DNA of 20,000 nt from an uncultured virus (IMG/VR IMGVR_UViG_3300027126_000148) (IMGVR_UViG_3300027126_000148); one strand, 5' to 3'; shown: positions 1,226 through 20,000, counted from the first letter of the stretch. Numbers and translations: made by a program. Notes: generated by a model from the letters alone, not told the origin.

Positions 1226-1227
1226 AT

Positions 1228-1258
1228 AAAAAACCCCAGAGGGGTTACCTCTGGGGTT
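1228..1258 (-). terminator. Rho-independent terminator after the major capsid gene
   Basis: Perfect 11-bp stem AACCCCAGAGG / CCTCTGGGGTT with a 5-nt loop and a T-run on the minus strand. Confidence 0.85.
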
Positions 1259-1275
1259 AAAACTGCGATAGTTTT

Positions 1276-2427: not shown

Positions 2428-2463
2428 ATTAGTATATTAATTAGTTAGTTAAGTTATTGGTTA

Positions 2464-3027: not shown

Positions 3028-3056
3028 AGTATTTTCCTATTATTTATTTGTTTTGT

Positions 3057-4526: not shown

Positions 4527-4527
4527 G

Positions 4528-4824
4528 TTATTCTAGAAAATATGTAATACTACCTACGGTTGCGGTTGCAATAGCTATTCCAGAACTATCTGGAACTCTC
4601 AAAGGAGCAGAATAGTTGCAATTCCCTTGAGCTACATAAGCAAATATACTTCCACTTGCTGTAGCACTAGCATTTGCCAAAGTAAGATTAGCTTGAGTAC
4701 TTATATCAGTAATAAAAATTCTTGAATTGCCATTATTGGGTGGCTGAATCAAAACACCTGTTGTTGTAAAATTAACAGTTGTTGTTGGTACGGACGCAAT
4801 ACCATTTTGAATAAAAGATTTCAT
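4528..4824 (-). CDS. Small beta-rich hypothetical protein, possibly virion-associated
   Basis: 98 aa, T/S/A/G-rich; start overlaps the upstream stop (TAATG). Confidence 0.65.
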   Translation of the reverse strand: MKSFIQNGIASVPTTTVNFTTTGVLIQPPNNGNSRIFITDISTQANLTLANASATASGSIFAYVAQGNCNYSAPLRVPDSSGIAIATATVGSITYFLE

Positions 4825-5189
4825 TATTTTAAAGTTGTTAAATATTTAGTCTTATTTACACTTGCTAAAATTTCATCTCTAATATTAAGCAAGTCTGTAT
4901 CTTTTGCAGCATCCAATTGAGATGGTAAATCATTGCTCAAAAAGCCAATAAAAGCATCCATTGCTTGAACTGGACTAATAGATTTATAATTTTGCAAAGT
5001 TAAAACAAAAGAATCCTTAGCAATAATTCGACCATATTTACCCATGAAAACCTCTACAAATTCATCAATATAACCAGACAAAGAATCATAAAGCTCTCCA
5101 AAAGCTTCATGCTCAGAGAATCCATAGGTTTGCCAATGGAATATCTTTACTTGGTTTTGAAACTGTAACATTGAAGATAGAATATTCAT
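4824..5189 (-). CDS. Ferritin/Dps-like four-helix protein (DUF5856-like)
   Basis: FHWQT..FSEHEAFGELYD...IDEFVEVFMGKYGR...LLNIRDEIL...KYL matches the Dps-like HW...H...ELY...D...E pattern. Confidence 0.7.
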   Translation of the reverse strand: MNILSSMLQFQNQVKIFHWQTYGFSEHEAFGELYDSLSGYIDEFVEVFMGKYGRIIAKDSFVLTLQNYKSISPVQAMDAFIGFLSNDLPSQLDAAKDTDLLNIRDEILASVNKTKYLTTLK

Positions 5190-5190
5190 A

Positions 5191-6366
5191 TTATTTCCCT
5201 TTCTTATATTGCAGCAAGCAAGATTGGAATTTTTCTTTGTCAGTTCCCTCTTTAGAAGGGATGCATTTTTGAAGGAAGTCTTTGAAATTTTGACCTTCTG
5301 TTTCGCACATTGACTTATACTCTTCCTCTTCTTCGTAAGAAGCGTAGACTTGAGCGCGAGAGAGTTGGTCCATTGTTTTTGTTAGGACTTCTCCCTTTTT
5401 ATAAGTTGGGCCTTCGTTAGTTACTTCATATGAAATAACTTTACCCATTTGATTTGGCAAGTCTTTGATCTCTTTTACGATTCCTTCGCTGCCATAATGA
5501 TAACAGTTCTTATTTACATTTCGAACCTTCTGACCAACCATAAACATTGGTTCAGAACTCATATAATTAGCGTCAGACTCTTCGGCAAACATTACATAGT
5601 TATGAATCATTACCATGTAATCTTCAGTAATAGCAATCTTGCCTTGTAAGAATGACTCAGTTAAATTTTCTTTAACCTTTTCATCATTTAAAGCATTGAG
5701 AATGTTCTCTGCATGAGTTTTAATAGAATTTAAAGAGCCAACTGACATTTCTAAATATTCATTCTTGTACTCTTCCATTTCGCTCTCTTCGGATTCCATC
5801 TCGTCTTCAGGCTCCATCATTTCTTCGGCTTTTGATAAATCAGGCCAAATTTTTAAGAGTTCGCTTTGATCCCAAAGAGTCAAACCATCCCACTCTTCTT
5901 CGTTAGCTTGAGCTTTCTTTAAAGCGTCTTGCTTTGGATAGTCTTTTTCTCCGGGCTTTGCTGGCTTATAGTTCTTGCCGAGACGATCTTTCTTCTTTTG
6001 AATATTGTGCCAAAGACCTTTTCCAGCTTCTGTTTCTAAACTAAAGACCTCTTCTGAAGCTTTAACTGGAGAACCCGCCCTCCATTGATAGCATGACCAG
6101 TATTTGGCTTTCCATTTTGGTCCGGGGTTTTTGTCGCAGCCATGTCTTGCTCTAAAACTTTTTCTTCTAGCAGGATCATCTCTCTTGATCTCCATGTTAG
6201 GATCACCAAAGTTAACCTTTACAACATTTCCTTTGTCATTTTTGACATAAACAGAAAACTTTTTAGGCCCATCAGGAGTCCTGAATGGCTTATTTAATGT
6301 TTTCTTTTCTTTGTCTGCGGCGACGATTTTAGAAGAAATATCGATTTCTAATTCTTTGGTTTTCAT
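5191..6366 (-). CDS. Multidomain head-region protein (DUF6321-like basic N-terminus, acidic linker, SH3/KOW-like segment)
   Basis: KTLNKPFRTPDGPKKFSVYVK...VNFGDPNMEIKRDDPARRKSFRARHGC...YWSC; GLWHNIQKKK...PGEKDYP; FMVGQKVRNVN..CYHYGSEGIVKEI. Confidence 0.65.
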   Translation of the reverse strand: MKTKELEIDISSKIVAADKEKKTLNKPFRTPDGPKKFSVYVKNDKGNVVKVNFGDPNMEIKRDDPARRKSFRARHGCDKNPGPKWKAKYWSCYQWRAGSPVKASEEVFSLETEAGKGLWHNIQKKKDRLGKNYKPAKPGEKDYPKQDALKKAQANEEEWDGLTLWDQSELLKIWPDLSKAEEMMEPEDEMESEESEMEEYKNEYLEMSVGSLNSIKTHAENILNALNDEKVKENLTESFLQGKIAITEDYMVMIHNYVMFAEESDANYMSSEPMFMVGQKVRNVNKNCYHYGSEGIVKEIKDLPNQMGKVISYEVTNEGPTYKKGEVLTKTMDQLSRAQVYASYEEEEEYKSMCETEGQNFKDFLQKCIPSKEGTDKEKFQSCLLQYKKGK

Positions 6367-6367
6367 G

Positions 6368-6937
6368 TTAAATATATTCTAGCCAGTTTGCTTTTTCTTG
6401 TTCTGTATCCAAGTATAGATCATTCTCATCTTCAAAATCATAATCAAGATTATAGTCTTGAATATCATTATCTGCTTGAGAGAAATCACCATCATTTGGT
6501 TCCCAAGAACCTGTAACATCAATTTCTGAAGCTCTAGCTACATCACTATCAGCTTTGCGATAAGCATCTTTAACAGTTTTACCAGCCATCATTCTTAAGA
6601 AAGTATTCACACGGGCCATTGCCCATTGTCCTCTTGTTTTTCCGGGTCTATGGCTAGAACTAAAAGCTCCAGCGCCTCTACGATAAACTTTTTTTAGTTG
6701 ACTTAAGCTTACTTTCTTAGAATATTTGCTATTATGCTCTCTAACTTTAGACTTTAAAGCTTCAACTACTTTAGCAGAAAACTCTATTGCTTTATCGCTT
6801 TTTGTTCCTGCGCTACCAGAAGGATTTTTAGCAGAACCGCTGCGCTTTTCAGAAGGTTTGGCAGGGGTCTGAGCAGAGCTTTTAGGCCCAGACCTCTTTG
6901 ATTCTATAATTTCTATTTCTAAACCTTGTAGGTTCAT
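6368..6937 (-). CDS. Basic head-region protein with acidic tail (DUF5824-like core)
   Basis: LKKVYRRGAGAFSSSHRPGKTRGQWAMARVNTF motif; family name recalled, not searched. Confidence 0.6.
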   Translation of the reverse strand: MNLQGLEIEIIESKRSGPKSSAQTPAKPSEKRSGSAKNPSGSAGTKSDKAIEFSAKVVEALKSKVREHNSKYSKKVSLSQLKKVYRRGAGAFSSSHRPGKTRGQWAMARVNTFLRMMAGKTVKDAYRKADSDVARASEIDVTGSWEPNDGDFSQADNDIQDYNLDYDFEDENDLYLDTEQEKANWLEYI

Positions 6938-6945
6938 AATTTGTA

Positions 6946-6962
6946 GCTTATTATTTATACAC
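6946..6962 (-). promoter_or_regulatory. Candidate late promoter GTGTATAAATAATAAGC
   Basis: Motif starts 25 nt before the ATG at 6937 in a short intergenic gap. Confidence 0.55.
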
Positions 6963-6984
6963 TAAAAATTAACTATTAAGGAAA

Positions 6985-8259
6985 TTATAATGGCCCATTT
7001 GTATTAAAGTTTGTGTAACTTAATCCTTTTAACAATCCACTCATAAATAAACCATTAGGATGAGGATAAGAATTCATGTCCATATCACAGTAAAAACTAA
7101 AATCTAAAACAGCATTTGAACCGATTGAAGAGTCATAAGATAGGTCTTTAAATTTAGCTCCTCTAATATCGTAGCGAATAATAGTTTCGGAACTCTTATT
7201 CATCTTGATTGAGATGTCGTATTTAGATTCTGATTTTATATCTGACAAAAGATTTCCTGAATAGTTTAAGTTTCTATATATTGTAGAGAAAGAGCCTTCT
7301 ACAGTAATTGGAGTGTTTATTTGGCGATCTACTGGGTAAACATAGCCCAATGTTTTTAATGGTTCCCTTTCTAAAGGAATGTTAAAATTAAAACTTTGTA
7401 TAGCGGCATCTTGGATTATTAGATTAGACTTGTTTTTAGATGTTGAATTAGCGTCATAAATGTCAATCACGATATCGCCGGGGAGCAAAACAGAAATTGC
7501 ATTTCCAGTTTCCTCAAAAGCTGTATTATAAGTTGGAATATTAAACGTTATGCCGGTATTTAATGTTCCGCTCTTTGGTTCTAAATACGGAGAAACTACG
7601 TTTATTCCAGAAGAGTAATACAACACATTGTGTGCTGCATAATTTACTGTAGCTTTAGGGAAATCGTTAACTTGAGCTTGAACTCCATAAGAAGTAATAT
7701 AACAATTACCGAAAGCTAAGACCGGAAACCCAGAAATACTGTTACCAATTGCATCTGTATTATTTGGAGTAATTGTTAAAAATAGATTGCGCTGATCTCT
7801 GTATTTAAAAGGATACTTAAATGTATTATTTGTGGCTTGAGTTAAATCAGAGTTGAATGAATAGTTCTGGTCTCCAAAAGAAAACCCAGACAATAAATTA
7901 CCACTAGGAAAAACTTGCCCACCATCAAATTGATCTAAATTAGGAGGCCCAAGATTAACATAGAAGCCCATTCTGGCTTCGTTTCGCAGATCTTTAATGT
8001 TGTAATTGAAACTAAGGCTAATATCAGGAGGATTTAAAGTATAATCATAAATAGTAGAAGCATTTCCTATCTCTGAGAACCTAGAAGATTGAGTATTTAT
8101 CTGATAACTAAATTGATTAATTCTTTTAAGGGGCTGAATTAAATTATAAACCCCAGTTCTGAGCAGGTTGCCGTTAGGGTCAGAGAAAAAATAGCCACTC
8201 GCTGGAGCAGGTCCAACGAATAGCAATTCGTTATTATATATTACTCTGTTTGTAGCCAT
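6985..8259 (-). CDS. Virion structural protein, tail-tube-like
   Basis: 424 aa, N/S/F/Y-rich beta-type protein with two similar strand-loop segments (INQFSYQINTQSSRFSEIG...PPDISLSFNY and IQSFNFNIPLEREPLKTLG...PITVEGSFS); coupled to the portal gene by TAATG. Confidence 0.5.
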   Translation of the reverse strand: MATNRVIYNNELLFVGPAPASGYFFSDPNGNLLRTGVYNLIQPLKRINQFSYQINTQSSRFSEIGNASTIYDYTLNPPDISLSFNYNIKDLRNEARMGFYVNLGPPNLDQFDGGQVFPSGNLLSGFSFGDQNYSFNSDLTQATNNTFKYPFKYRDQRNLFLTITPNNTDAIGNSISGFPVLAFGNCYITSYGVQAQVNDFPKATVNYAAHNVLYYSSGINVVSPYLEPKSGTLNTGITFNIPTYNTAFEETGNAISVLLPGDIVIDIYDANSTSKNKSNLIIQDAAIQSFNFNIPLEREPLKTLGYVYPVDRQINTPITVEGSFSTIYRNLNYSGNLLSDIKSESKYDISIKMNKSSETIIRYDIRGAKFKDLSYDSSIGSNAVLDFSFYCDMDMNSYPHPNGLFMSGLLKGLSYTNFNTNGPL

Positions 8260-10148
8260 TAGATTTTGCTATGATAGAGCAAACTAGCCATGTAAGAATC
8301 AACTTGATGCTCGCAAGCGATATTATGAATCTCTTCTATTCTCTTTGGGTTTTTATCTACAGGAGTTTCAATGTATTCTCCTATTTTAGAGACCCAATTA
8401 GATTGATCTTCGTTTGCGACAATAACTTTAGTGATATCAAGGACTACTTCTTTTTGTCTTTCATTTAATTTCTTAAGTTTATGTTTTTTCTTTAAGAAAC
8501 CCTCTACTTCTGCTCCTAATTTACTTGTAGCTTCTACAATGTCTTTTAATTTCATGACACTGTAATTAGCTTTAGAAGAGGTGCCGATTGGCTTTACATT
8601 TTTTGTAGTTTGCTTGATGCCTGTGCTTCCTGCTGGTCTACCGGCTGCATCTATTTTTGGTCCACCGATTAAAGGCTGATAATATCCTTTATCTTTTAAG
8701 TCAACAAAAGCTGTTTGAGATTGCACTGACTCATCTGGAGTAGGCAATACTCCAGTTTCAATAGCTTTAAGACCTTCTTCAGGAGTAAGAACCCCAAGCT
8801 CAATAAGGCGAGTATAAATTCTGTTAAGATTTTGATCGCTCTTAAGATCCATATCTTCAAAGAATGGAGTTGGGAATACTTTGAATCCTATTTCTTTAGA
8901 AATCCTCTTAACTTCTGGCAATAAGAAGTCAGTAATAAAAGCTTGGCGAGCCTGTAATAATTTCTGCCCTAATAGAGATACTTTTGTACTAGCATTAGCG
9001 AATTTTTCATTACCAACAAGCACATTATTTAAGCCAATATTAATATCTTTATCGATGATCTCGTATTTCTTTGGATCTAAGATGTCAGCAATTTGAGGAA
9101 TGACGAATTCGGCTTTTGTAGTATAGTCAGCAATCAAGACTCTTCCAATAGACTGATTCGCAAATAAATTTTGCATCGTCTTTAAGTTCTCTTGGTTTAC
9201 TCCACCTTTATCTGGCTCTGCGCCCATTGTGACAAGAAGGATTACTTGCTGAATTGTTCTTGTAAGAGCCATGTCCATACGGCGCATTTCTATTTTTGCG
9301 CTAATATCTTCAAGAACAGGAAAACCCATTGGTACAGCGAAGGGTTCGTAATCTTGTTTCTTGTAGAATACGGCGTAGAACTTCTTTGTGTCTAAATGGA
9401 GCAAAACTGCCGTAGCTTTTCCTTTTAGAACTTGCTCTTTAACTAACGGATCAAGAGAATCCAATATCTCTTTGTCTTCTTCTGTTCTTGGATTTCTAAT
9501 TTGCTCAAGCTCGTAGTCAGTTAGAACCTTATAATACTGTCCTCTATTAAAAGACAAATTACCATTAACCTGAACGTCTGCTGGATTAATGATTATGTAT
9601 CTAGCAGGTAAAGAAACTCTTGCCGCCAAAGCTTGAGAACCGAAAACTTGGCTAATTTTAGACACATCCTCTTCTCTAATGGTAGTATCATATCTATAAA
9701 TAAAAACATTACCAGAACGATAATACTCTCTAAAGAACTTGTCTTGTAATGCAGTAATGTTTATCTTATTAAATAAGGCTTGGAAGAAATCTCTTGCGCT
9801 TTTATTCCCACCTTTAAGATGAATATTGCCGCAAGAAAGCTCTGACATTAGATCAATAGTATTTCTAAATAAACCAAAGTTATAGTAGGCTTTTTGGCAA
9901 AGAATTACTGTATCTCTGACATCAATATTTGATTTATTATAATTATAACCAGTGGCATAGTTAAATGGCACCATGCCGTCATCAATATTGCGAAAACGAT
10001 CTGTTCTCTCAATGGTTGATGCGGCGTTTCTGCGGCTCCTCGTTTCGGTAACTCTGCTTGCTACTCCGCCATGAGCAGGAGTAGAGCCTTCTACCATCAT
10101 TGGGGCGAAAGAATTTTCCGCAACTTTGTCTTTTTTAACCTTTGCCAT
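8259..10148 (-). CDS. Portal protein
   Basis: 629 aa directly downstream of TerL; FRNTIDLMSE...FFREYYRSGNVFIY...YIIINPADV...KKQDYEPFAVP pattern typical of portals. Confidence 0.8.
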   Translation of the reverse strand: MAKVKKDKVAENSFAPMMVEGSTPAHGGVASRVTETRSRRNAASTIERTDRFRNIDDGMVPFNYATGYNYNKSNIDVRDTVILCQKAYYNFGLFRNTIDLMSELSCGNIHLKGGNKSARDFFQALFNKINITALQDKFFREYYRSGNVFIYRYDTTIREEDVSKISQVFGSQALAARVSLPARYIIINPADVQVNGNLSFNRGQYYKVLTDYELEQIRNPRTEEDKEILDSLDPLVKEQVLKGKATAVLLHLDTKKFYAVFYKKQDYEPFAVPMGFPVLEDISAKIEMRRMDMALTRTIQQVILLVTMGAEPDKGGVNQENLKTMQNLFANQSIGRVLIADYTTKAEFVIPQIADILDPKKYEIIDKDINIGLNNVLVGNEKFANASTKVSLLGQKLLQARQAFITDFLLPEVKRISKEIGFKVFPTPFFEDMDLKSDQNLNRIYTRLIELGVLTPEEGLKAIETGVLPTPDESVQSQTAFVDLKDKGYYQPLIGGPKIDAAGRPAGSTGIKQTTKNVKPIGTSSKANYSVMKLKDIVEATSKLGAEVEGFLKKKHKLKKLNERQKEVVLDITKVIVANEDQSNWVSKIGEYIETPVDKNPKRIEEIHNIACEHQVDSYMASLLYHSKI

Positions 10149-10151
10149 AAG

Positions 10152-10169
10152 CCTAATAATTAATTACAC
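10152..10169 (-). promoter_or_regulatory. Candidate late promoter GTGTAATTAATTATTAGG
   Basis: Fills the 24-bp TerL-portal gap; nearly identical to the 514-531 motif. Confidence 0.6.
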
Positions 10170-10172
10170 ATT

Positions 10173-12014
10173 TTAAATTAAAATTGGTGTAAATCCCGCA
10201 GCTACTATTTTATTTTCAGTAGTCATAATGTCATTATAGCATTTAGAGCCCCATTTAGCTAACATTAAAGCAGTATAATTATCTTTTCTTGCTCTATTAG
10301 GAGAATTGGAACGCTTTAAGTGTTGAGGAAGGTCAAAATTAACAGACCCACGGCTGCTGGTAGTGAACTCAACTAGTGAGCATTGCTTCTTAGTGTTATA
10401 GACAAGCAAATCTTGGTGTTCAATTAGGTCTAACTTGTTCCAGTCTTTGTTTTCTTCTACGAAGATTATGTCTTCTGGTATTCTTTTATTTATTTCTTCA
10501 TTAAAGAAGGTTTCGTTAGCTACTGTCTTTGAAGCAAACCAGATTTTCTTATAGTCAATTGCCGCTTGTAGATTTTCATTACCTCTTCTAATGAAGGTAG
10601 TAGTGAATACTTGAGTTACTGCTATTTGTTTATTTTCAAGGTTATATTGACTCTTGGCTTTCTGAACCATCTTTGTGTATTCAATGCCTTCAAGATCGGA
10701 ATCGAAGTCAATAAACTTAATCTTCTCAGACTCTGAGTTTACGAATTGAGATTCATTATAAGTGTTGAAGAAAATATCAGCACCAGCATTATCACATATG
10801 ATATAAACAATATTAAAGCTAGTCATTAAGTAATGAAAGTATTTAATGTGAGTATTTAAACTGCCAAGACCAGCATAAGCATGAACGAGAACGTCATTTT
10901 TGTTTTCTCTGTCTATTTCCAAAATAGCCATTGCAAAATAGTCAGCATTTGGACTGTCGCTCATGTTGGGGTCCATTGCTAAGATATATTGCTTGCCGCT
11001 ATCTCCTCTAATTTGGGAGTGAGGTCTCTCTTCAAACTTAAGAGTGCATTCTTCCATCTTCTTCATGCTGAAGTAAGAGTCGCTACCATCAGTAAATTGA
11101 GCGCAATACTCTCTCAAGAAAGAAGCGTGAGAAGATCCGCCGTTTTGCGCCTCTTCTGTAATTGAAGAATCTATCATCTCTGGAGGAAGAGACTCATAGC
11201 TTAATTGAGAAACGAAATAAGTAGCACTTGTTGGCTCCTTTGAATAAATATTATCGCACCACTCTTTATAAGTCTTATAGAGGTTCTCAAAAGTATAAGA
11301 AGCAGAAGACAGAGCGATCATTTTGGAAGTATTCTTGAACTCCATGCGGTCAGCTTCAGTCATTGCGCCTTGTGCAATTAATTCATTCTCTTGTTCGCGA
11401 ATACTAATACGTTCTTTAATGTCTTGAGGCACGATCAAGAAGGGCATTAATACATTTTTGATGATGTCTTCTGGCAATAAGAGAAACTCATCAAGCACAA
11501 GAACATTAGCGCGGAAACCGCGAATCTTTTCGCCGCTTAGAGGAATAGCTTTTATTGAACCTTCGTTAATTGACCAGTCGTATTCATCATTACGCTTTGA
11601 CTTTGCGCCGAATGCTTGCATCAAAAGGTCTGCGCCTTTAGATTCGGTAATCTTTTCTATTGAATTGAAAATGCTTCTTGCTGTTCTGAAGGTTGGGCCA
11701 GCAATTAAGATTTTGCTCTTAGGTTCAAAGATGCATTGTAGGAAACAAAACACCGCAGCAGAGAAAGATTTAGAAGCACCGCGACCCCACACGTTCATGC
11801 AGAAATTTCGGTTCAACATTCCTTTAATTACAATCTCTTGATAAGGCCATAATTTTATACCAGAAATTAGCTCTGTAGTTATCCCTATATTTGAACGCAA
11901 AAACTTAGCTAAAGTTATCTTAGCTTCCTTATCTTCAAGAGTATCTTTTAGTCTAGAATATTCATCATTTAGATTTGGGATTATTCTATTGTATTTCTCT
12001 GGGGTATACCACAT
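10173..12014 (-). CDS. terL: Terminase large subunit
   Basis: LWPYQ adenine-binding motif, Walker A WGRGASKS, IRGFRANVLVLDEF Walker B, FLREYCAQF, RNase H-like ILAMDPN..DYFA and terminal RKDNYTALMLA. Confidence 0.92.
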   Translation of the reverse strand: MWYTPEKYNRIIPNLNDEYSRLKDTLEDKEAKITLAKFLRSNIGITTELISGIKLWPYQEIVIKGMLNRNFCMNVWGRGASKSFSAAVFCFLQCIFEPKSKILIAGPTFRTARSIFNSIEKITESKGADLLMQAFGAKSKRNDEYDWSINEGSIKAIPLSGEKIRGFRANVLVLDEFLLLPEDIIKNVLMPFLIVPQDIKERISIREQENELIAQGAMTEADRMEFKNTSKMIALSSASYTFENLYKTYKEWCDNIYSKEPTSATYFVSQLSYESLPPEMIDSSITEEAQNGGSSHASFLREYCAQFTDGSDSYFSMKKMEECTLKFEERPHSQIRGDSGKQYILAMDPNMSDSPNADYFAMAILEIDRENKNDVLVHAYAGLGSLNTHIKYFHYLMTSFNIVYIICDNAGADIFFNTYNESQFVNSESEKIKFIDFDSDLEGIEYTKMVQKAKSQYNLENKQIAVTQVFTTTFIRRGNENLQAAIDYKKIWFASKTVANETFFNEEINKRIPEDIIFVEENKDWNKLDLIEHQDLLVYNTKKQCSLVEFTTSSRGSVNFDLPQHLKRSNSPNRARKDNYTALMLAKWGSKCYNDIMTTENKIVAAGFTPILI

Positions 12015-12015
12015 A

Positions 12016-12954
12016 TTATAGCATTTTTAGGTCGTAGCAAAGCTGGAGATCGTATTTAAAAAAGTTCTCATCAGTAGAGAACATCTTTTCTATGATTCGA
12101 ACAGACTCTTTGCGCCCTTTTGCAAATAAGAATTGCACATGGGGATATTTCTGAATCAACTCTCTGACATTATGGAATATAAACTCAGGGTTTACCTTTG
12201 TAGCTTTCTTGTATACATGAGGAAGATAATTAAAAGACAGAGCATTACTTAAACTCTCTTCTACAATGATAACCATGTTAGCTTTGGCTTCGCTGGCTTT
12301 CTCAATCTCTCGACAAAACCTTTCGTAACCGGCGCTTAGTGTTCCAATGAAATCAGAAATAGACTTTCTCTCAAAGTAAAGCTTGCCATCATAACTTGGA
12401 TGACTAAACCCATAGTCTCCAAACTTAAGAGTACGAACTTCAGATGCCATATTAAATATAAACGGCTTCTGCTCTCGCGTATCAATGTAAATGATTGACC
12501 CTTTGGTTTGTAATGGTGCTAAATTATCTAAACTCTCTGGGTATATGTATTTATTTTTAAATCCAAGATCTCCAGTGAACTGATAATAATCACCAAAAAT
12601 TTCTTGTAAGTAAATAACGCTCGGGCTCAAGACACTGCGAAGCTCAACTTGAGATGGAGTATATGCTAGACCTTTCTTTTCTTTTCTCTTGATGAGAAAG
12701 TCTTTGCAGTACTCTTTCTGTTTCTCTAGTGATTGAGCTTTGAGCCAGTTTTTTAGATTATTTTTATTGTTAAAGTCAGTATTAAAGTACTGCTCTTTAT
12801 TCTTGTAAATAATTATGGAGTTATCGAAAGCATCATAGCGAGGATGATGTTGTTGATAGTACTCTATTACTCTTAGTTTGTGAGCTTTGAGATGGCGATT
12901 AAAGTCTGCATCTACCTCATAAGCTTTTTGACATATTTTACATGTTTCAGCCAT
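12016..12954 (-). CDS. C2H2 zinc finger plus ERCC4 (XPF/Mus81-family) nuclease
   Basis: CKIC-x12-HLKAH at the N-terminus; IYIDTREQ...GDY...FERKSISDF...IIVEE is the ERCC4 GDxnERKxxxD signature. Confidence 0.85.
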   Translation of the reverse strand: MAETCKICQKAYEVDADFNRHLKAHKLRVIEYYQQHHPRYDAFDNSIIIYKNKEQYFNTDFNNKNNLKNWLKAQSLEKQKEYCKDFLIKRKEKKGLAYTPSQVELRSVLSPSVIYLQEIFGDYYQFTGDLGFKNKYIYPESLDNLAPLQTKGSIIYIDTREQKPFIFNMASEVRTLKFGDYGFSHPSYDGKLYFERKSISDFIGTLSAGYERFCREIEKASEAKANMVIIVEESLSNALSFNYLPHVYKKATKVNPEFIFHNVRELIQKYPHVQFLFAKGRKESVRIIEKMFSTDENFFKYDLQLCYDLKML

Positions 12955-14065
12955 TTAACACCTCGTCCTCTGAAATTCCTAAGATACGGCACTTGATTTC
13001 ATCCATTGTAGAGAGGCGATCTATTTCATTCTTTACCATCGCCTTTCTCCTTTCAGCAAGTTTTAATAATTGCATACGAGATTCTTCTTCTTTCCACATT
13101 TGAACTAGATTAAGGATGCTGGCGTTCTCTTTTATTTGCTTGCTAAGACGATCACTTCGCTTTACCTTAAGGTCATTAAGAAGTTTTTGTTGGCGAATGG
13201 TCGATTGGTTATATTCGTCTCTTGCTCCACTGATTGCTTCAATGAGAGCCATTGGCAATTTGCCGCCGCCATCAATTTCTACATCAATTTGATTTTGAAG
13301 AGTTTGAATTGTCTCTTGAATATTAGCAGAGATAACTACTTCAGTAGCTAGAACAATGTATTGATCTACTTCTTCTTGAGTGAGGTCTGGTTTATCAAAT
13401 GTATAACGAACAAAAGAGCTTTCAAATAACTCACGATCAATGTTAGAAGAGTAACTATTTATCTGATGCAAGAAACGATAAGTGTGCATGTATCCAATGA
13501 TAGCATTAACAGAAGCCTTCTGGCGTGAAGTGACTTTATCTTTATCAATACCTTCATGAACATACTTGTTGATTCGAAAAAGCATGCGCTCAAAAGTCTT
13601 TGGCGGCATGTATTGAGAATCTGCAAGACTCTCTGTATCTCTTTGTGAGACTGGACCTGCTTGAATTACTTTCTGGTCAAGAGTCTTAATGAAATCAATT
13701 ACAGTACGAGTTTCTTGACTGAGGCTAGTAAGGTTTTGATTATTGAAAATACTTTTAGTAATCTCAAGTGCGCCCATTGAACCTGCATTGTTAGCAGTAA
13801 ACTCTTTTTGTTCTGGAGATAGTTCAATCTTATCTTTTGCCAAGTACTCATACGAAGCCCTTGCTTTAATTTGTCTTGTGGATAAGAACTCTTTAACTTT
13901 CTTGCCGTGCCAACTTCTACCGTCTGCGCCTTCAATGTTAGGAAAAGCAACCCTAACAAGTTCAAGCAAAGAAGGAGGATTAGTAGGGCGATTGTTCCAC
14001 TCATTTAAAATTGCCAGTCGCTGTTGGTCATTAAGTTCTTGAGGTTGGTTTTCATTTTCAGCCAT
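12947..14065 (-). CDS. Probable terminase small subunit or packaging-associated helical protein
   Basis: 372 aa, helical/coiled-coil C-terminus, two genes upstream of TerL with 8-bp overlaps on both sides. Assignment is positional. Confidence 0.45.
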   Translation of the reverse strand: MAENENQPQELNDQQRLAILNEWNNRPTNPPSLLELVRVAFPNIEGADGRSWHGKKVKEFLSTRQIKARASYEYLAKDKIELSPEQKEFTANNAGSMGALEITKSIFNNQNLTSLSQETRTVIDFIKTLDQKVIQAGPVSQRDTESLADSQYMPPKTFERMLFRINKYVHEGIDKDKVTSRQKASVNAIIGYMHTYRFLHQINSYSSNIDRELFESSFVRYTFDKPDLTQEEVDQYIVLATEVVISANIQETIQTLQNQIDVEIDGGGKLPMALIEAISGARDEYNQSTIRQQKLLNDLKVKRSDRLSKQIKENASILNLVQMWKEEESRMQLLKLAERRKAMVKNEIDRLSTMDEIKCRILGISEDEVLNG

Positions 14066-14750
14066 AAATTTCTACTTCTCCATTCACAATGCACTTCTTA
14101 GCTTTTACAAGTATAGAACGCTTTAAGTTCTTTATTTGCTTGTATCCGGGGGAACGATTCTTTTCAGTGGTCTTGAATCCTAGAACTTTTGCAACTTCTT
14201 CTTCTCTCTGATTTCTCAAGCAAAGCATTTCATAAACTATCCACTCTGCTGGCTTTAATACTTTTCTTAATGCTGATGATAAACTCTGAGTACTTCTTAG
14301 AAGGTCAAAACCTTCGTTAGTCATGTCGTGAACTTCTTTAATATGATTCTCAAGAGGGAGGGTTACTTTTGTATTGAAAGCGTCTTTCTTATTGTTTTCC
14401 CAATGAGCATACAAGGGGCACTTCTTACACTGTTCTCCATATATTGAACAAGAATCATCCCACTCTGCCGCCGCACACTTCAAACAAGGTCTGGCATAAT
14501 TACCATAGTTGTTTCTTATAATGTTTTTTATTTGATTGGATATGATAATGTTTAACCAAGGGGCAAGGGGTTTTTTCTGATCGTATAGACTCCATTTTTT
14601 ATAAATATGAATCCTCAATATCTGCTCAACGTCCTCGAAATCAATCCAAGACAATGCGGCAAGGTTCCACTTGTTTTTGCGTTTGCGAATTTCTTCGTCT
14701 ACGATAGCAATGTTCTTTTCAAAGGTTTCTTTTTGGACTTTTTGAGCCAT
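14058..14750 (-). CDS. Phage sigma70-family (ECF-like) sigma factor with a Cys-rich insertion
   Basis: Region 2-like DFEDVEQILRIHIYKKWSLYD...LAPWLNIIISNQIKNIIR; region 4-like LKPAEWIVYEMLCLRNQREEEVAKVLG; CLKC...C...CKKC between them. Confidence 0.75.
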   Translation of the reverse strand: MAQKVQKETFEKNIAIVDEEIRKRKNKWNLAALSWIDFEDVEQILRIHIYKKWSLYDQKKPLAPWLNIIISNQIKNIIRNNYGNYARPCLKCAAAEWDDSCSIYGEQCKKCPLYAHWENNKKDAFNTKVTLPLENHIKEVHDMTNEGFDLLRSTQSLSSALRKVLKPAEWIVYEMLCLRNQREEEVAKVLGFKTTEKNRSPGYKQIKNLKRSILVKAKKCIVNGEVEIYG

Positions 14751-14751
14751 T

Positions 14752-15153
14752 TTATTTTTGCCTTAATGTACCGGCTTCTTTTTTAAACATTTTAAGAGTA
14801 TCTTTTACAGAGAGACCTTCTGCTCCTCTTGCTCCAAAACCTGCCATGCTGTCTGGCATTGTTGCGGCAATCTTTGCAAGAGATTCTTTTCTTGGGCCTT
14901 CCGCTTGATACTCAACTTCTAAACCATTTTTTAAATCAGGAATTGATGCATCATTTTCTTCATCATCGCTTTCATCATCGTCCTGCTCGTCATACTCTTC
15001 TTGAGCGCGAACTTTGTTTTCTCTTGCCTTTTTATCTTGTGGCTTTTCTACGATAACACCATAGAATGCTGTGCCACACGCAGAGCAAAACTTTGGCTTT
15101 GCTTGAGCGTACAAATTAGGATTTCCACATTGAGAGCAGTAAATTTTTTGCAT
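14752..15153 (-). CDS. Zinc-ribbon protein with an acidic tract
   Basis: YCSQCG...KFCSACG followed by a D/E run. Confidence 0.75.
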   Translation of the reverse strand: MQKIYCSQCGNPNLYAQAKPKFCSACGTAFYGVIVEKPQDKKARENKVRAQEEYDEQDDDESDDEENDASIPDLKNGLEVEYQAEGPRKESLAKIAATMPDSMAGFGARGAEGLSVKDTLKMFKKEAGTLRQK

Positions 15154-15166
15154 AATTCATTAATTT

Positions 15167-15195
15167 ATTATAGTTTAATAACGGTAAAAAAGCAA
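15167..15195 (-). promoter_or_regulatory. Sigma70 promoter TTGCTT-N17-TATAAT for the zinc-ribbon/sigma/terminase operon
   Basis: Plus strand AAGCAA 15190-15195 and ATTATA 15167-15172, 17-bp spacer. Confidence 0.65.
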
Positions 15196-15211
15196 GTGTA
15201 ATTGTAATAGA
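15196..15211 (+). promoter_or_regulatory. Candidate late promoter GTGTAATTGTAATAGA
   Basis: Motif starts 16 nt before the ATG at 15212 and abuts the divergent -35 box. Confidence 0.5.
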
Positions 15212-15487
15212 ATGAAGTATTCATTTAAGAATTACGAAAAAGTTGAATACACCATTAATTGGGTCAAACCCCCTAAAGGGTGCTACGGTATATGCGATTC
15301 CCCAGAGATGGAGAATCCAAAGATAAAGATTGACCCTAAATTAACCAAACAAAAGACAGTCAACATTCTAATACATGAAGTATTACACGCATTTTTCTGG
15401 CAAGAATCAGAAACAAAAGTAACTAAATGCGCGAACACTTTATCAAGACTCATCCACCAAAGGATGAAACAAAAGTTTAATGAATGA
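15212..15487 (+). CDS. Small HExxH zinc metallopeptidase-like protein
   Basis: YGIC...IKIDPKL...ILIHEVLHAFF...E. Confidence 0.7.
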   Translation: MKYSFKNYEKVEYTINWVKPPKGCYGICDSPEMENPKIKIDPKLTKQKTVNILIHEVLHAFFWQESETKVTKCANTLSRLIHQRMKQKFNE

Positions 15488-16199
15488 TTGACTTGTATTT
15501 AGTAATCTTATCAACAATAAAGCGAGTAATACCACTTCTCATAATATCTTCTTGCCCAAGCTTAAAGTATTGAATGCCATTGTCTCGGCTATCTTGGTCT
15601 TGGAAGATATCACAGAACTCTTTGAACCCAGACTTCTTGCCTAGGTCATTTTGCATAATAGTATCACCACAAATAAATAGCTTACTAAATTTACCCATTC
15701 GGGTTGCCGCCGTTACAAGAGAATCAAACATCATGTTCTGACCCTCATCCAAAATAACGGAATTAACGTTAAAGGTATAGCCGCGAAGCAGAGAAACAGG
15801 GTAAGTTTTGATCCTTTCTTGCTTATTTAGTAATTCGATGCTGGATTTATTTAGTAATTCTTCTAGCTTATCAAATAGAGGTACGTTATAGAAGAAAGTC
15901 TTTTCGTCTAAGTCGCCAGTTAAGAAGCCAGTTTGACCATCTGTGCTTTGAATTAGGGATCGGATATATACAATATCAGAAATCTTTTTAGCCTTTAGTA
16001 ATTCTAGCGAGCAATAAACACTCAGTAGAGTCTTGGCTGTGCCGGGAAGCCCATCTAGAATGATTATATTAGTAGACTTGTCTAAGGCCGCTTGAATAAT
16101 TTGTTCTTGTTTCGGGGTCCATTTTAATTTACGAATTTCAAAGTCATCTTTTACTTTGTCTTTTTGAGAAACGTGGGGGGAGTTATCTTTTTTTGACAT
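15477..16199 (-). CDS. phoH: PhoH family ATPase
   Basis: GLPGTAKT P-loop, GFLTGDLDEK, LRGYTF, ILDEGQN, TRMG, CGD..QNDL, DIMRS. Confidence 0.92.
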   Translation of the reverse strand: MSKKDNSPHVSQKDKVKDDFEIRKLKWTPKQEQIIQAALDKSTNIIILDGLPGTAKTLLSVYCSLELLKAKKISDIVYIRSLIQSTDGQTGFLTGDLDEKTFFYNVPLFDKLEELLNKSSIELLNKQERIKTYPVSLLRGYTFNVNSVILDEGQNMMFDSLVTAATRMGKFSKLFICGDTIMQNDLGKKSGFKEFCDIFQDQDSRDNGIQYFKLGQEDIMRSGITRFIVDKITKYKSIIH

Positions 16200-16208
16200 T
16201 TTAATTAG

Positions 16209-16240
16209 CCTTACTATTTTAATTACATGTATTATATATA
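16209..16240. promoter_or_regulatory. Overlapping divergent ATGTA motifs (palindrome TACATGTA 16224-16231)
   Basis: Minus strand ATGTAATTAAAATAGTAAGG before phoH; plus strand ATGTATTATATATA directly before the ATG at 16241. Confidence 0.45.
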
Positions 16241-16582
16241 ATGAGGAACAAATTTCAAGTTACAGTTGTGAACCCCAAGACTTGCAGGAAGAAGATTCGT
16301 TGTGAGGGGTGCGAACTGGCGTATAGTAAAGAGGATTATTTATTATTCTTCACTGTTCGTAAGCTTGTTTATTTTAATATGATTGCTGAAGATGGGAAGC
16401 AAATGAAGATTTGCGACTCTTGTTTAGTGTCTCTCGCTTCGATGACTTGCGCGAAATATGATTTACCATATATTACTATTATAATTAAAGGCGAGGAAAA
16501 TACAAAACAAATAAATATCGAGTATAGTGGAGACAAATCTTTTGAGCAAGAATTACTAAAAGTCTTTAACAAGATCAATTAA
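16241..16582 (+). CDS. Hypothetical Cys-rich protein (CEGC...CDSC)
   Basis: 113 aa ORF filling the gap; two CxxC motifs. Confidence 0.6.
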   Translation: MRNKFQVTVVNPKTCRKKIRCEGCELAYSKEDYLLFFTVRKLVYFNMIAEDGKQMKICDSCLVSLASMTCAKYDLPYITIIIKGEENTKQINIEYSGDKSFEQELLKVFNKIN

Positions 16583-17068
16583 TTTTTGCCGCGATTCTTC
16601 TGTTCTCTGATCTGGAGTAGTGATATTTTTATAATACTGCATTACTCCAATCATAGAATTAATATTGTTTTTATTTTTTAATGCATTACCTTCGAAAGAG
16701 ACAATCTTAACATTGTCTGGTACATAGCCCTTATTTGGGTCTATCCTATCTAATGATGCAGATCTTTTATTATCTACTCCTGACTTATATAGTATTTCGC
16801 AGCCCAAAATGGGGCAGATATTATTTTTAATCTTTATTAAATCCGCAAGAGTGAGGTTGAACTCTATATTTTTCTTTTTTGAACGCATCTTGGCGGCTCT
16901 CAATATTACTTTTCTTAAATAGTAATTTTCGCCATCCATAGGGTCTTCCATTTTTTCCTTTTGTCTCTCGTATTCTAGAGAATAACAACAAGTATTGCAC
17001 TTGTCTTTTGATCTACTGAATTCTGTATCTTCTTTCTCAGCTTGACACACAGAACATTTGATTAACAT
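16556..17068 (-). CDS. HNH-like endonuclease with an N-terminal zinc-binding region
   Basis: CSVC...CNTC, FNLT..DL...CPILG, SASLDRIDPNKGYVPDNVKIVS..N..K. Confidence 0.75.
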   Translation of the reverse strand: MLIKCSVCQAEKEDTEFSRSKDKCNTCCYSLEYERQKEKMEDPMDGENYYLRKVILRAAKMRSKKKNIEFNLTLADLIKIKNNICPILGCEILYKSGVDNKRSASLDRIDPNKGYVPDNVKIVSFEGNALKNKNNINSMIGVMQYYKNITTPDQRTEESRQKLIDLVKDF

Positions 17069-17083
17069 TAGATATATCTACAC
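17069..17083 (-). promoter_or_regulatory. Candidate late promoter GTGTAGATATATCTA
   Basis: Motif starts 15 nt before the ATG at 17068. Confidence 0.45.
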
Positions 17084-17415
17084 AAGCTATATCTAAAAAA
17101 GGTATTTTTTGGGAAGGGCTCCGGGGATTTTTTGACCTTGCAAACTCTTCAGGTCTTCCTTTTGGTCTTATTTTTTGAGAAATAGGGGGGTCTTATATAG
17201 GGATAGATATTAATACATAGACAGATAGAATAGTAAGTATTTAGTAATTAAGGATAGAATGATAGATTCTTTTAATTGGTATATTAATAAAAGAAGGTTT
17301 TATTGATTAAGGGCAGAATGATTTTTAGACCCCCCCGCCCCCGTATTTGAAAAGTCTCTGGCAATATTTTCATAAATTGGGGGCAATGTCAATAGCATTT
17401 TCTGGCAATCTTCGC

Positions 17416-17445
17416 AAAAAAAATCCCCCTCTTTCGAAGGGGATT
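17416..17445 (-). terminator. Rho-independent terminator of 17465..17890
   Basis: Minus strand AATCCCCTTC-GAAA-GAGGGGGATT followed by a T-run. Confidence 0.85.
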
Positions 17446-17464
17446 CGATTGACTTTCGCTCGCC

Positions 17465-17890
17465 TTAGTCGGCCAGATTGGCGACATCTTCAACGGGGAA
17501 CGTGAGGAACTTAGGCGGAGTCTTTGCCTTTTTGTAAAGGGTAATCGTCGCCAGTTCTTCAGCGGTAGCAGGACGACCGTCCACAAGATAGCCAATCGTC
17601 TTCATGGCAGAAGACGGAAGCGCGGCAACGTAGTGACGACCAGTAACAGGGTGCTTGACCAGTCCGGGCTTGACCCAGACGAACCACGGCTTGTCACCGG
17701 GTGCGTCTTCATGGCGATTCCCGTAGGAATCAGGACCGGCCAATGTCACAACCACGCGGTGATTCTTCATCACGCGGCCAAGTAAAGGGTTCAAAGGAAG
17801 GCCAGATCTGCCGCCTGTCTTCATGGAATGTTCCCCACGAAGGAGAACTGTGCAGATGCTACCTGCACGAATTTTATTGAGGTCAATCAT
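17465..17890 (-). CDS. Hypothetical protein, GC-rich paralogue of 18294..18740
   Basis: 141 aa; shares TGGRSGLPLN, GRV, TLAG, WF..VK.G.VKH..TG..Y.A.LP, LVDG and KFLT with 18294..18740; own terminator. Confidence 0.85.
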   Translation of the reverse strand: MIDLNKIRAGSICTVLLRGEHSMKTGGRSGLPLNPLLGRVMKNHRVVVTLAGPDSYGNRHEDAPGDKPWFVWVKPGLVKHPVTGRHYVAALPSSAMKTIGYLVDGRPATAEELATITLYKKAKTPPKFLTFPVEDVANLAD

Positions 17891-17931
17891 GATGCGTTGG
17901 TTTTTTAGTGCCGCTCACTCGCGACGGAAAG

Positions 17932-17960
17932 AGAGTCGCACGGTTCCCATTTGATTGCAA
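17932..17960 (-). promoter_or_regulatory. Possible sigma70-type promoter TTGCAA-N17-GACTCT for 17465..17890
   Basis: Good -35 and 17-bp spacing with a TG extension, weak -10; A/T tract upstream. Confidence 0.35.
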
Positions 17961-17986
17961 CCCACTTTCTCAAATAATTTTCGCCC

Positions 17987-18076
17987 CTAGGCTGGCACAC
18001 TCTTTGCTCCCCAGCACGTTTCATGCCAAGTCTAGGTTGGCACACTCTTTGCTCCCCAGCAAGTCCCATGCCAAGT
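17987..18076. repeat. Two tandem 45-bp repeats, each a head-to-head pair of sigma-54-type boxes
   Basis: CTAGGCTGGCACACTCTTTGCTCCCCAGCACGTTTCATGCCAAGT / CTAGGTTGGCACACTCTTTGCTCCCCAGCAAGTCCCATGCCAAGT. Confidence 0.9.
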
Positions 18077-18192
18077 CCGTGGAAAGGATAGTTTCCCAAT
18101 CTGGGGTCCCCAATTCGAAAAACTATCGTCGCCCATAGCTTGGCATGATTCCTGCTCTGGCATGGTTCCTGCTCCCAGCATAGACTATGCCA
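17993..18192. promoter_or_regulatory. Cluster of seven sigma-54 (RpoN) -24/-12 type boxes TGGCAY-N6-TGCT
   Basis: +17993-18008, -18013-18028, +18038-18053, -18058-18073, +18141-18156, +18158-18173, -18177-18192; all have exact GG-N10-GC spacing. Confidence 0.75.
18087..18127. repeat. Dyad element copy 1
   Basis: GATAGTTT-CCCAATC-TGGGGTCCCCA-ATTCGAA-AAACTATC, centred at 18107. Confidence 0.9.
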
Positions 18193-18257
18193 AGTGCCCG
18201 TTAACGTAGAAAATTAAAGTAGATTTACTTCTCGTATATATATAAGTACATGTTAAA

Positions 18258-18287
18258 TTGTCATAGTCAGTTTGGCTCTTATATAAA
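18258..18287 (+). promoter_or_regulatory. Possible sigma70-type promoter TTGTCA-N18-TATAAA for 18294..18740 (leaderless)
   Basis: -35 at 18258-18263, -10 at 18282-18287, ATG 7 nt later. Confidence 0.4.
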
Positions 18288-18293
18288 TACAAC

Positions 18294-18740
18294 ATGATTA
18301 ATATAAATACAATCAAGGCGGGGCATATTGCTACTGTTTTGATGCAGGGTGAATATAAATTAAACACTGGCGGTCGCTCCGGTCTTCCCTTGAATGAATA
18401 CAAGGGTCGTGTGACAAGAGCTTATCGTTTTGCGATAACGCTTGCGGGTGAGGAAACGTATAACAATAAATACCCTGATTCAGTCGGCAAACCTAATTGG
18501 TTTGAGTTTGTGAAGGATGGTGTTGTTAAACATAAGACTACCGGCCAATTGTATTTGGCTGGGCTTCCCACCAATAGCAAAAAGAATAGGTTTGACCTAT
18601 TGGTAGACGGTCAACCTATCACAGAAGAGCAGTATAACTATATACAAAAGTATCGGAGTGACAAAGAGGAAGCCAAGTTTCTCACTATTGCAATTGACAA
18701 TGTGATAAACGTAGAAGATCCTGCAACATACGTTGACTGA
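18294..18740 (+). CDS. Hypothetical protein, AT-rich paralogue of 17465..17890
   Basis: 148 aa; hand alignment gives 48/92 identities without gaps over the N-terminal part. Confidence 0.85.
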   Translation: MININTIKAGHIATVLMQGEYKLNTGGRSGLPLNEYKGRVTRAYRFAITLAGEETYNNKYPDSVGKPNWFEFVKDGVVKHKTTGQLYLAGLPTNSKKNRFDLLVDGQPITEEQYNYIQKYRSDKEEAKFLTIAIDNVINVEDPATYVD

Positions 18741-18752
18741 TTAAATAGTGGG

Positions 18753-18773
18753 GCGCGTATACTATAAACGCGC
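18753..18773 (+). other. Intergenic GC hairpin (pause, processing site or weak terminator)
   Basis: GCGCGT-N9-ACGCGC in an AT-rich spacer; no strong T-run. Confidence 0.4.
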
Positions 18774-18791
18774 ATTTAATAATAAAACACT

Positions 18792-18995
18792 ATGAATACC
18801 AAAATCACAGAAGCCGAAGCAATTGAAATTCGTCTCGCTCTTGAAGATCGTATCAATATTATCAACAAACATATAGCAGAATGCGGGGCTTTAAATGAAT
18901 TAGGACACGTTAATTACTGGCAAGATAAATTGCAAAAGGCGCAATCTGCACATAATAAATTGCGCCATTCAATTCTGTTTATGGCTGGTGAATAA
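18792..18995 (+). CDS. Small helical protein, paralogue of 19023..19217
   Basis: 67 aa; shared I(E/D)IR.A....I...NK.IAEC...N...DK......KL pattern. Confidence 0.75.
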   Translation: MNTKITEAEAIEIRLALEDRINIINKHIAECGALNELGHVNYWQDKLQKAQSAHNKLRHSILFMAGE

Positions 18996-19022
18996 ATAAT
19001 AAACCACTTATCCTAATACAAT

Positions 19023-19217
19023 ATGAATAACAAACTAGCTGTGATGGAAATGATTGATATACGAATAGCGATTCAGTCAAGTATAGACGATTGTAATAAG
19101 AGCATAGCAGAGTGTGACAAGTATAATTTAAACAAAGACATCTTTGTTGATAAAAGAGATAGCCTCATTAGCGGCTTATCTAAATTGAATAAGCAGTATA
19201 ATGATTTCATGCTATGA
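19023..19217 (+). CDS. Small helical protein, paralogue of 18792..18995
   Basis: 64 aa; same pattern and a similar AATAATAAA..ACT leader. Confidence 0.75.
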   Translation: MNNKLAVMEMIDIRIAIQSSIDDCNKSIAECDKYNLNKDIFVDKRDSLISGLSKLNKQYNDFML

Positions 19218-19264
19218 TAATATTATTGTTTGTCCTACTAATAGTAGGAATGGTATCTAAATAG
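19214..19264 (+). CDS. Possible 16-aa hydrophobic micropeptide MIILLFVLLIVGMVSK
   Basis: ATGA overlap with the upstream stop; ends 10 nt before the terminator. Confidence 0.35.
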   Translation: MIILLFVLLIVGMVSK

Positions 19265-19274
19265 CGCTATCAAC

Positions 19275-19309
19275 AAACCCTCTGTAGTAATACAGGGGGT
19301 TTCTTGTTT
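19275..19309 (+). terminator. Rho-independent terminator of the plus-strand AT-rich unit
   Basis: AAACCCTCTGTA-GTAA-TACAGGGGGTTT then CTTGTTT. Confidence 0.8.
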
Positions 19310-19334
19310 ATAAATAGCTGTTTATAAATAAGCG

Positions 19335-19373
19335 ATAGTTTTTGACTTTGGGGTCCCCAAAACTATAAACTAT
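19335..19373. repeat. Dyad element copy 2
   Basis: ATAGTTT-TTGACTT-TGGGGTCCCCA-AAACTAT-AAACTAT, centred at 19354. Confidence 0.9.
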
Positions 19374-19406
19374 GAAAACAGTGATAAATCACTAGTAATA
19401 CTATTA

Positions 19407-19458
19407 TTTGGCCTTTATTTGCGTAATATTTGCGTAATGTTTGATTAATATTTGACAC
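19407..19458. repeat. Degenerate 11-bp tandem repeat (TTTG every 11 bp)
   Basis: TTTGGCCTTTA TTTGCGTAATA TTTGCGTAATG TTTGATTAATA TTTGACAC. Confidence 0.7.
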
Positions 19459-19490
19459 AAAAAAACCCCACTGTTTATCACAGTAGGGCT
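19459..19490 (-). terminator. Rho-independent terminator of 19509..19718
   Basis: Minus strand GCCCTACTGT-GATAA-ACAGTGGGGT followed by a T-run. Confidence 0.8.
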
Positions 19491-19508
19491 ATTGTATTTG
19501 TTTAGGGT

Positions 19509-19718
19509 TTAATTGATAAAGCCGTCAGGATTGATTTCACGATACTCAGTGGAAAACCGAGTGGCGCGTTTGACCATCACGATGACGCCGAGATGCTCCG
19601 TTCCCTCTGCCGGTTGATTCTCAGCGTCCGGTTCAAAGGGGAGCCAACTGGAGAAACGGAATCCCTTTTTCTTAAGGGCGGTTTCGGATTTGCTCTGGGC
19701 TTCAGTGGTTTGATACAT
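19509..19718 (-). CDS. Hypothetical protein (69 aa, MYQTTEAQ...), GC-rich; start revised from 19868
   Basis: ATG at 19718 follows an A-rich leader and a TTGATC-N17-CACAAT promoter-like sequence; the longer ORF call runs through regulatory elements. Confidence 0.7.
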   Translation of the reverse strand: MYQTTEAQSKSETALKKKGFRFSSWLPFEPDAENQPAEGTEHLGVIVMVKRATRFSTEYREINPDGFIN

Positions 19719-19821
19719 AGTGATTTTTTTGTTGTTTCTTACCGTCGCGCAGATTGTGGCTGACTTTTCATCTGAGATCAACAGGAAAAGTGGTTTGTCA
19801 CCAGAATTTAACAAAGGGGTT

Positions 19822-19837
19822 TGGCACGGTCCTTGCT
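19822..19837 (+). promoter_or_regulatory. Sigma-54-type box TGGCACGGTCCTTGCT
   Basis: Essentially the RpoN consensus TGGCACG-N4-TTGCW, 5 bp from dyad copy 3. Confidence 0.75.
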
Positions 19838-19842
19838 TCGGC

Positions 19843-19881
19843 ATAGTTTCCAGATCTGGGCTCCCCAAAAGCCAAAACTAT
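19843..19881. repeat. Dyad element copy 3
   Basis: ATAGTTT-CCAGATC-TGGGCTCCCCA-AAAGCCA-AAACTAT, centred at 19862. Confidence 0.9.
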
Positions 19882-19914
19882 AAAAAAACCCCGTTATACT
19901 AATATAACGAGGTT
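19882..19914 (-). terminator. Rho-independent terminator of a minus-strand unit lying to the right
   Basis: Minus strand AACCTCGTTATA-TTAG-TATAACGGGGTT followed by a T-run. Confidence 0.8.
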
Positions 19915-20000
19915 GTGTTATTTGCTGACTATTTGACAATATTAGTCATTATGATCCGCCCATGTAGGGTCTTCATTTATATATCTATTGCGCCTAGTGT

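Follow-up and report, generated by a model that had tools for sequence, protein, structure and literature searches.

What kind of element is a 39-bp dyad that recurs between the genes of an uncultured phage, and what might read it? The question is raised by a stretch of 20,000 nucleotides (IMG/VR IMGVR_UViG_3300027126_000148; here called the window, meaning the whole stretch that was analysed), in which a sequence-only reading had noted three exactly spaced dyads centred at 18107, 19354 and 19862. A pattern search finds the exact pattern on those centres, at 18088–18126, 19335–19373 and 19843–19881, with no fourth copy in the window at up to three mismatches, and the pattern has no match in 200 dinucleotide shuffles of the window. 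The three dyads, listed without strand, lie between transcription units, as had been claimed. Dyad 1, which is of type A (see below) and kept in relatives, forms the first array boundary between divergent units. Just outside it lies a 141-aa ORF (17465–17890, minus strand) with a terminator-like hairpin past its end (17421–17446, minus), and on the other side cassette 1 runs on the plus strand with a 148-aa ORF that is inverted in some relatives (18294–18740), a 67-aa ORF (18792–18995), a 64-aa ORF (19023–19217) and a terminator-like hairpin at its end (19275–19302). The 141-aa and 148-aa ORFs are paralogues, and the former is predicted to form an SH3-like barrel without a family name. Dyad 2 stands between two convergent units with a terminator on either side, the second being the hairpin that ends cassette 2 (19464–19490, minus), whose gene is a 69-aa ORF (19509–19718, minus; the start is the second ATG of the listed frame). 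Dyad 3 separates the promoter end of this cassette from the terminator-like hairpin of cassette 3 (19887–19914, minus), which is 5 bp off the dyad.

By its Pfam and PHROGs matches the window is tailed-phage DNA, with a large terminase, PhoH, an ERCC4-type nuclease and a sigma-70 region 2 protein. No cultured phage was found that matches the capsid protein or the DNA of 17900–20000, and terminase matches are about 24% identical. The DNA occurs in river metagenomes, where 14 of the 24 runs listed hold at least half of the window's words. A chromosomal site in a host was considered and rejected, as the search of 185,579 prokaryote genomes gave one lone match, without neighbours, on a 12-kb contig of an archaeal MAG, which was judged to be chance. 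The nearest record (G001) matches window positions 1–17222 at 99.98% and stops before the array, ending within an AT-rich, non-coding stretch (17060–17420) that contains homopolymer G and C runs, lies between the endonuclease gene and the array and is a candidate origin or terminus region.

A search beyond the window, which the sequence-only reading had proposed, places the three dyads at the start of a much longer array that is conserved in relatives. One metagenome locus (L053) is identical to window positions 15599–20000 (4402 of 4402 bases), extends beyond the window and carries 18 dyads across 12.8 kb. The exact pattern is present in 17 viral contigs, and at least 238 metagenome stretches carry a looser form; long relatives have 12–19 dyads per array, and in records of 61, 49, 34 and 35 kb all matches fall inside the array. 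The dyads follow one another at intervals of 0.3–1.8 kb in one early region, and each interval holds 1–4 small same-strand genes with a sigma-70-like promoter and a terminator-like hairpin, the units pointing both ways, a layout from which we infer an early region read by the host polymerase. Pfam gave no match for 21 of the 30 array-region proteins scanned, and several of the remaining matches are weak; a lytic transglycosylase, a deacetylase, GP88 and DUF932 are among the cargo that could be named, most genes being without a family. Past the far end of the array lie six tRNA genes (L053:15472–18448). A de novo scan of another relative (G008, 87% complete) found no dyad array, nor was one found within the 10 kb examined in distant relatives retrieved via the sigma-like gene, and the presence of the element throughout the family is therefore unsupported. 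No description of the dyad was found in the open-access literature.

The anatomy of the element points to a protein that reads duplex DNA. In 172 unique oriented dyads from relatives, a count that overstates independence since the sequences are related, arm positions are 95–100% invariant and the GG and CC at positions 16–17 and 23–24 are kept in 97–100%, around 7-bp spacers that vary even inside one genome. The centre is polar, with C at position 19 in 78% and C at position 21 in 88%. Of 242 arm pairs, 236 have a spacing of 25, and four of the six exceptions reflect a second arm-like heptamer within a normal dyad. The spacers had been described as mostly non-complementary, and the counts bear this out: spacer pairing lies below that of half-swapped controls on both strands (0.492 against 0.535 and 0.607 against 0.644), 2000 of 2000 shuffles equal or exceed the observed pairing, with or without G-U pairs, and real dyads fold less stably than half-swapped ones. 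Hairpin covariation was absent on either strand, also in type C dyads. That the dyad acts as an RNA or single-strand hairpin, for instance as an RNase III-type processing site or an attC-like substrate, is hence scarcely credible and largely refuted already; some copies do fold well on one strand, such as the minus strand of dyad 1 (-16 kcal/mol, z -3.8), but this is not general, as four of the six strands of the window dyads have z between -0.7 and -1.8, the majority of copies have a terminator on one side and a promoter on the other, and Rfam has no match except tRNAs. Invariant arms, fixed spacing and low spacer pairing together argue for a double-stranded protein-binding site and against a hairpin, in agreement with the preference of the sequence-only reading for a symmetric DNA-binding site. 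Position-specific invariance around variable spacers would be the mark of a protein reading duplex DNA, and gene conversion alone or a hairpin would be expected to leave a different pattern. The dyad is a real, strongly selected boundary site that a protein probably reads.

The site exists in four versions. Type B, with arms AGAGTTGC, makes up whole arrays in five contigs, and the 220 unique A/B sites divide into 191 A/A, 29 B/B and no hybrid. The phages that carry the two types are otherwise close: nine genes from endonuclease to terminase show no fixed difference between 16–18 A and five B contigs, and in a comparison of one A with one B contig the replication proteins are mostly 98–100% identical and tail and replication genes 88–100% identical. 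Between A and B, gene bodies are held in common at 93–97% and the sequence differs around the dyads. One array combines eight type A dyads with a single type B dyad that has type B flanks (L056:4372–4410) and is either a recombinant or a chimeric assembly. Type C has the form TTGGCACG-N6-GCWGC-N6-CGTGCCAA and, among the loci listed (80 of 97), makes up arrays in at least 19 contigs. Seven copies stand at cassette borders, beside DUF932 and GP88 genes, in a distant relative whose record is near complete (G007). Type D joins the arm GTAGTTGC to a type C centre and is present in eight copies in locus L293. When the four are aligned by their centres they fall into one 39-bp register, with arms that grade from C through D and B to A around a common GC-rich core. 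This common register is new here, and it suggests that type A descended from type C, a proposal that draws on the register itself and not on a tree.

Which protein reads the dyads? No reader was found among the array genes and records compared. All copies have changed between near-identical phages, which argues that the reader is phage-encoded or array-linked; the version with a sigma-54 consensus (type C, below) points instead to a host factor, and the array with eight A dyads and one B dyad weakens a strict matching of reader and site. The 141/148-aa paralogues were tried as candidates, as they are present in all 19 A and five B contigs and are the only universal array genes that separate all five B contigs, and were rejected because they are 33–100% variable within A and went undetected in the type C and D loci examined. 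Their model (pLDDT 86) is weakly SH3/Tudor-like (best Z 5.4, rmsd 6.6, 70 aligned residues), their viral fold matches are unnamed, no Pfam family scored above cut-off in the 37 of 137 homologues scanned, and an Atlas neighbour named motB (score 0.81) is a lead only. Outside the array, one A and one B contig differ only in a sugar-modification island, in a comparison that leaves out about 40–50 kb of genome. At that island a set of glycosyl-/methyltransferase-like genes is swapped (L537:1–7856 against L541:1–7856) beside replication genes that are 98–100% identical. A RuvB-like AAA+ protein with a winged helix (L363:4723–5670, in G007) adjoins the type C array; such proteins also lie near other type C arrays, and none was seen in the A/B loci examined.

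The sequence-only reading had offered an operator or enhancer as one role, and the spacing between dyads and promoters lends this partial support. Distances from the dyad end to the -35 hexamer cluster at 6–10, 16–19, 27, 37–41, 61–63 and 71–73, with those of 21–23, 33–34 and 54 falling off phase. For 24 placements in 18 promoter families, with hexamers called by pattern and families grouped by hand after the data had been seen, phasing at 10.5 bp gives R 0.46 and p ~0.005, or p 0.21 without the shortest class, and periods of 9 and 11 do equally well. Six families occur at two distances, and every one of them shifts by 9, 10, 10.5, 11, 21 or 23 bp. The implied dyad centres, at -61 to -64, -72/-73, -82 and -92 to -95, match class I activator positions (PMC4132738). 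As a sole role, however, promoter activation is contradicted by dyads that stand between two terminators (10 junction types and 22 dyads with junction ends classed by hand, among them window copy 2), which are as conserved as the others; activation alone therefore cannot explain the element. Compared with class I sites such as those of CRP, the dyad would share a symmetric site near -61, -72, -82 or -93 and whole-turn shifts, and it differs in being much longer, in having four blocks and in being kept without an adjacent promoter, any dependence of promoters on it being putative.

Gene content changes at the dyads, which is the part of the earlier suggestion of a site-specific recombination site that has stood. 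Among relatives, cassettes have been gained and lost at the protein level, two neighbouring cassettes occur in either order, one unit sits at two different places and is turned round in one of them relative to the other, six loci have the 148-aa unit inverted, and a dyad can be present or absent between one and the same gene pair. Across 342 pairs with just one flank in common, the spacer on that side is preserved (identity 0.63–0.88) and the far spacer drops to 0.32–0.83, towards the background of 0.29–0.60. In 14 junction trios, partly non-independent, the left spacer sides with the left parent by 33 to 13, and the right spacer with the right parent by 27 to 14. These patterns, the polarity of the dyad, the moved and flipped cassettes, the roughly half of the 14 trios that switch in or beside the core and the contigs that skip one cassette in both of two DNA runs would all suit a dedicated site at which an unrecognised recombinase cuts within the GGG-N3-CCC core to excise, insert or invert cassettes in the manner of an integron or shufflon. 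Such a site is nonetheless unlikely: the other trios take the whole dyad from one side, crossovers fall in core or arms without a single crossover point, the cassette-skipping joint (the one such joint among the assembled contigs listed, with no circle joint of the sort that PeSL-like cassette mini-circles would leave) has its crossover in the outer arm plus flank, core triplets are variable, genes are for the most part collinear, and exchange between types A and B has left no hybrid dyad among the 220, breaking instead in gene bodies or about 25 bp off the dyads. PF00589 (tyrosine recombinase) was absent from 12 distinct records and from both array flanks seen, and PF00239 (resolvase) from five, in a search with one near-complete record, a distant type C phage. 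The dedicated recombinase is thus the part of the suggestion that is not supported. A serine recombinase site has an even dyad with its axis on a central dinucleotide; here the dyad is centred on a single base, the 20th of 39. Integron attC and Xer/pdif sites are palindromes that delimit mobile gene cassettes, as the dyads do; an attC site is of variable length, folds as a single-strand hairpin and bounds promoterless cassettes next to an IntI tyrosine recombinase, whereas the dyad has a fixed length, no single-strand pairing, an odd 3-bp centre and cassettes with promoters of their own. RecA is encoded in near and distant relatives and is 100% identical between a type A and a type B phage, and unrelated cassettes share promoter and terminator flanks. 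Scattered crossovers, the absence of an integrase or resolvase from the records searched and the presence of RecA make PeSL-like homologous exchange likelier than site-specific recombination, and homologous exchange at conserved blocks, as proposed for PeSLs, fits best.

A second alternative starts from the likeness of the dyads to sigma-54 (RpoN) promoters. Type C halves carry TTGGCACG and GC(A/T) at -24/-12 spacing in 92–100% of 88 unique dyads, favouring G and not the usual TT ahead of GC. The window itself holds eight boxes of sigma-54 consensus where 0.10 would be expected, all beside dyads 1 and 3: two head-to-head pairs within 17992–18074 (17992–18008 plus, 18013–18029 minus, 18037–18053 plus and 18058–18074 minus), three boxes within 18140–18193 (18140–18156 plus, 18157–18173 plus and 18177–18193 minus) and a single box that faces dyad 3 from 5 bp away (19821–19837, plus). 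The boxes nearest dyad 1 point outward, 13 bp off on each side, and are constant in relatives too. The consensus elements and the stable closed complex of sigma-54 are described in PMC3844500, and by element and spacing the type C halves and the eight window boxes qualify and the type A dyad does not, its arm having TT where type C has GG. It is quite unlikely that the dyads are a dock or decoy for the host sigma-54 holoenzyme or a related factor, where a dead-end closed complex would titrate sigma-54 away from stress regulons or block read-through, and where A, B and D would have drifted and be recognised by a factor that is modified or different. The type C halves, the register that C, D, B and A share around a GC-rich core, the canonical boxes that persist beside A, B and D sites and the absence of a phage sigma-54 domain from four records speak for it; against it, type A arms lack the -24 GG, so that ordinary sigma-54 should not read them, type C has its unusual G, and the AAA+ neighbour of the type C array resembles RuvB and shows no GAFTGA. 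Type A halves keep the geometry of such promoters, from which the dyads differ in that head-to-head overlapping pairs stand at every gene border, A, B and D arms have lost GG and no enhancer-binding protein was identified here. The dyads had also been read as a possible injection or replication signal, and it is decidedly improbable that they mark the first-injected end or a long terminal repeat, with a protein that paces entry or protects or organises the leading DNA. They are indeed confined to one early region at their short intervals and conserved independently of promoter context, and array contigs in two DNA runs often have about twice the depth of their flanks (for example 23–42 against 17–20 and 9–13 against 3–5), but these depths come from assembled contigs and sum other strains, and are not copy number, some within-array contigs are at single depth, and all records are classed as linear without end repeats.

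The reading we prefer, to which we give even chances, is that the dyad is a putative docking site for a symmetric protein at cassette borders, coupled to the host RNA polymerase and serving as a passive crossover point. One symmetric protein, a dimer or a dimer of dimers, would dock on the double-stranded dyad and read in each half the outer 7–8-bp arm and the inner GGG block, about one helical turn apart, with one copy of the site at each border of self-contained early transcription units. The bound protein would stand in helical register with host RNA polymerase at an adjacent promoter and might act as activator, roadblock or both, keeping the units independent in either orientation, and the dyads together with the common promoter and terminator flanks would offer passive homology for RecA-type crossover, as in PeSLs. 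A more specific proposal, tentative and rather doubtful, is that the sites descend from two overlapping head-to-head sigma-54 sites and that a reader which was a host factor was replaced by a switching phage-linked protein that couples the units to polymerase and targets exchange. If it were true, this would be a modular early-gene system without an integrase, whose private code switches between otherwise identical phages.

Among the nearest known systems are the PeSL cassettes of the T4-type phages RB49/phi1, PST and nt-1 (PMC2839356, PMC4122927), whose describers even speculated on a protein reading GGGG...CCCC. Both systems have repeated intergenic elements in a hypervariable early region and ORFan units with their own sigma-70-like promoter and terminator, and both probably undergo homologous recombination at repeats without an integrase; in the dyad arrays, too, repeats lie in the early region and cassettes are gained, lost and swapped at them. 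The PeSL repeat, however, consists of promoter and stem-loop, the position of the stem being variable, whereas the dyad is a separate, fixed 39-bp bipartite site between terminator and promoter, with units that face both ways and with neighbouring promoters and terminators that differ between junctions. To judge from its pattern of conservation it would be kept as a binding site, not as a stem, and in lineage-specific versions. In its evolution the element resembles a PeSL array and in its geometry a class I or sigma-54-type docking site, but it belongs neither to PeSLs nor to attC sites nor, in its type A form, to sigma-54 promoters. It offers a concrete DNA element for how large phages keep host-takeover genes insulated yet exchangeable. 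The four versions, which share a register and include a textbook sigma-54 pair, form a natural series in which to look for the reader and to ask if phages dock with the sigma-54 machinery, titrate it or imitate it, and a symmetric, orientation-independent boundary site could serve synthetic gene arrays.

Several further observations concern the same genomes. The sigma-70 region 2 protein of the window (14058–14750, minus strand) lies upstream of the terminase operon, has at least 592 viral relatives and probably serves a large family of uncultured phages as late sigma factor; G007 encodes a second, fuller sigma-70 gene. Between the portal and the prohead region, 5191–6937 (minus) holds two genes with DUF5754/DUF5824-like segments and a ferritin-like DUF5856 gene, in a block whose length is variable among relatives. 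One distant relative has a 69-bp tandem repeat near its sigma-like gene (L312:9626–10290), and another has different spaced inverted repeats (CTGTTG...CAACAG; L296:11592–12200). Beside dyad 1, window positions 17987–18076 are a 45-bp tandem duplication in which each unit is a head-to-head pair of sigma-54 boxes; the half-to-half gap of these pairs varies in relatives (37-, 38-, 39- and 42-bp forms), unlike the gap of the type C dyad, which is fixed. Immediately to the right of dyad 2, at 19380–19393, lies the short palindrome AGTGATAAATCACT, which many minus-strand cassettes of relatives repeat at their terminator end and which is possibly a second binding site.
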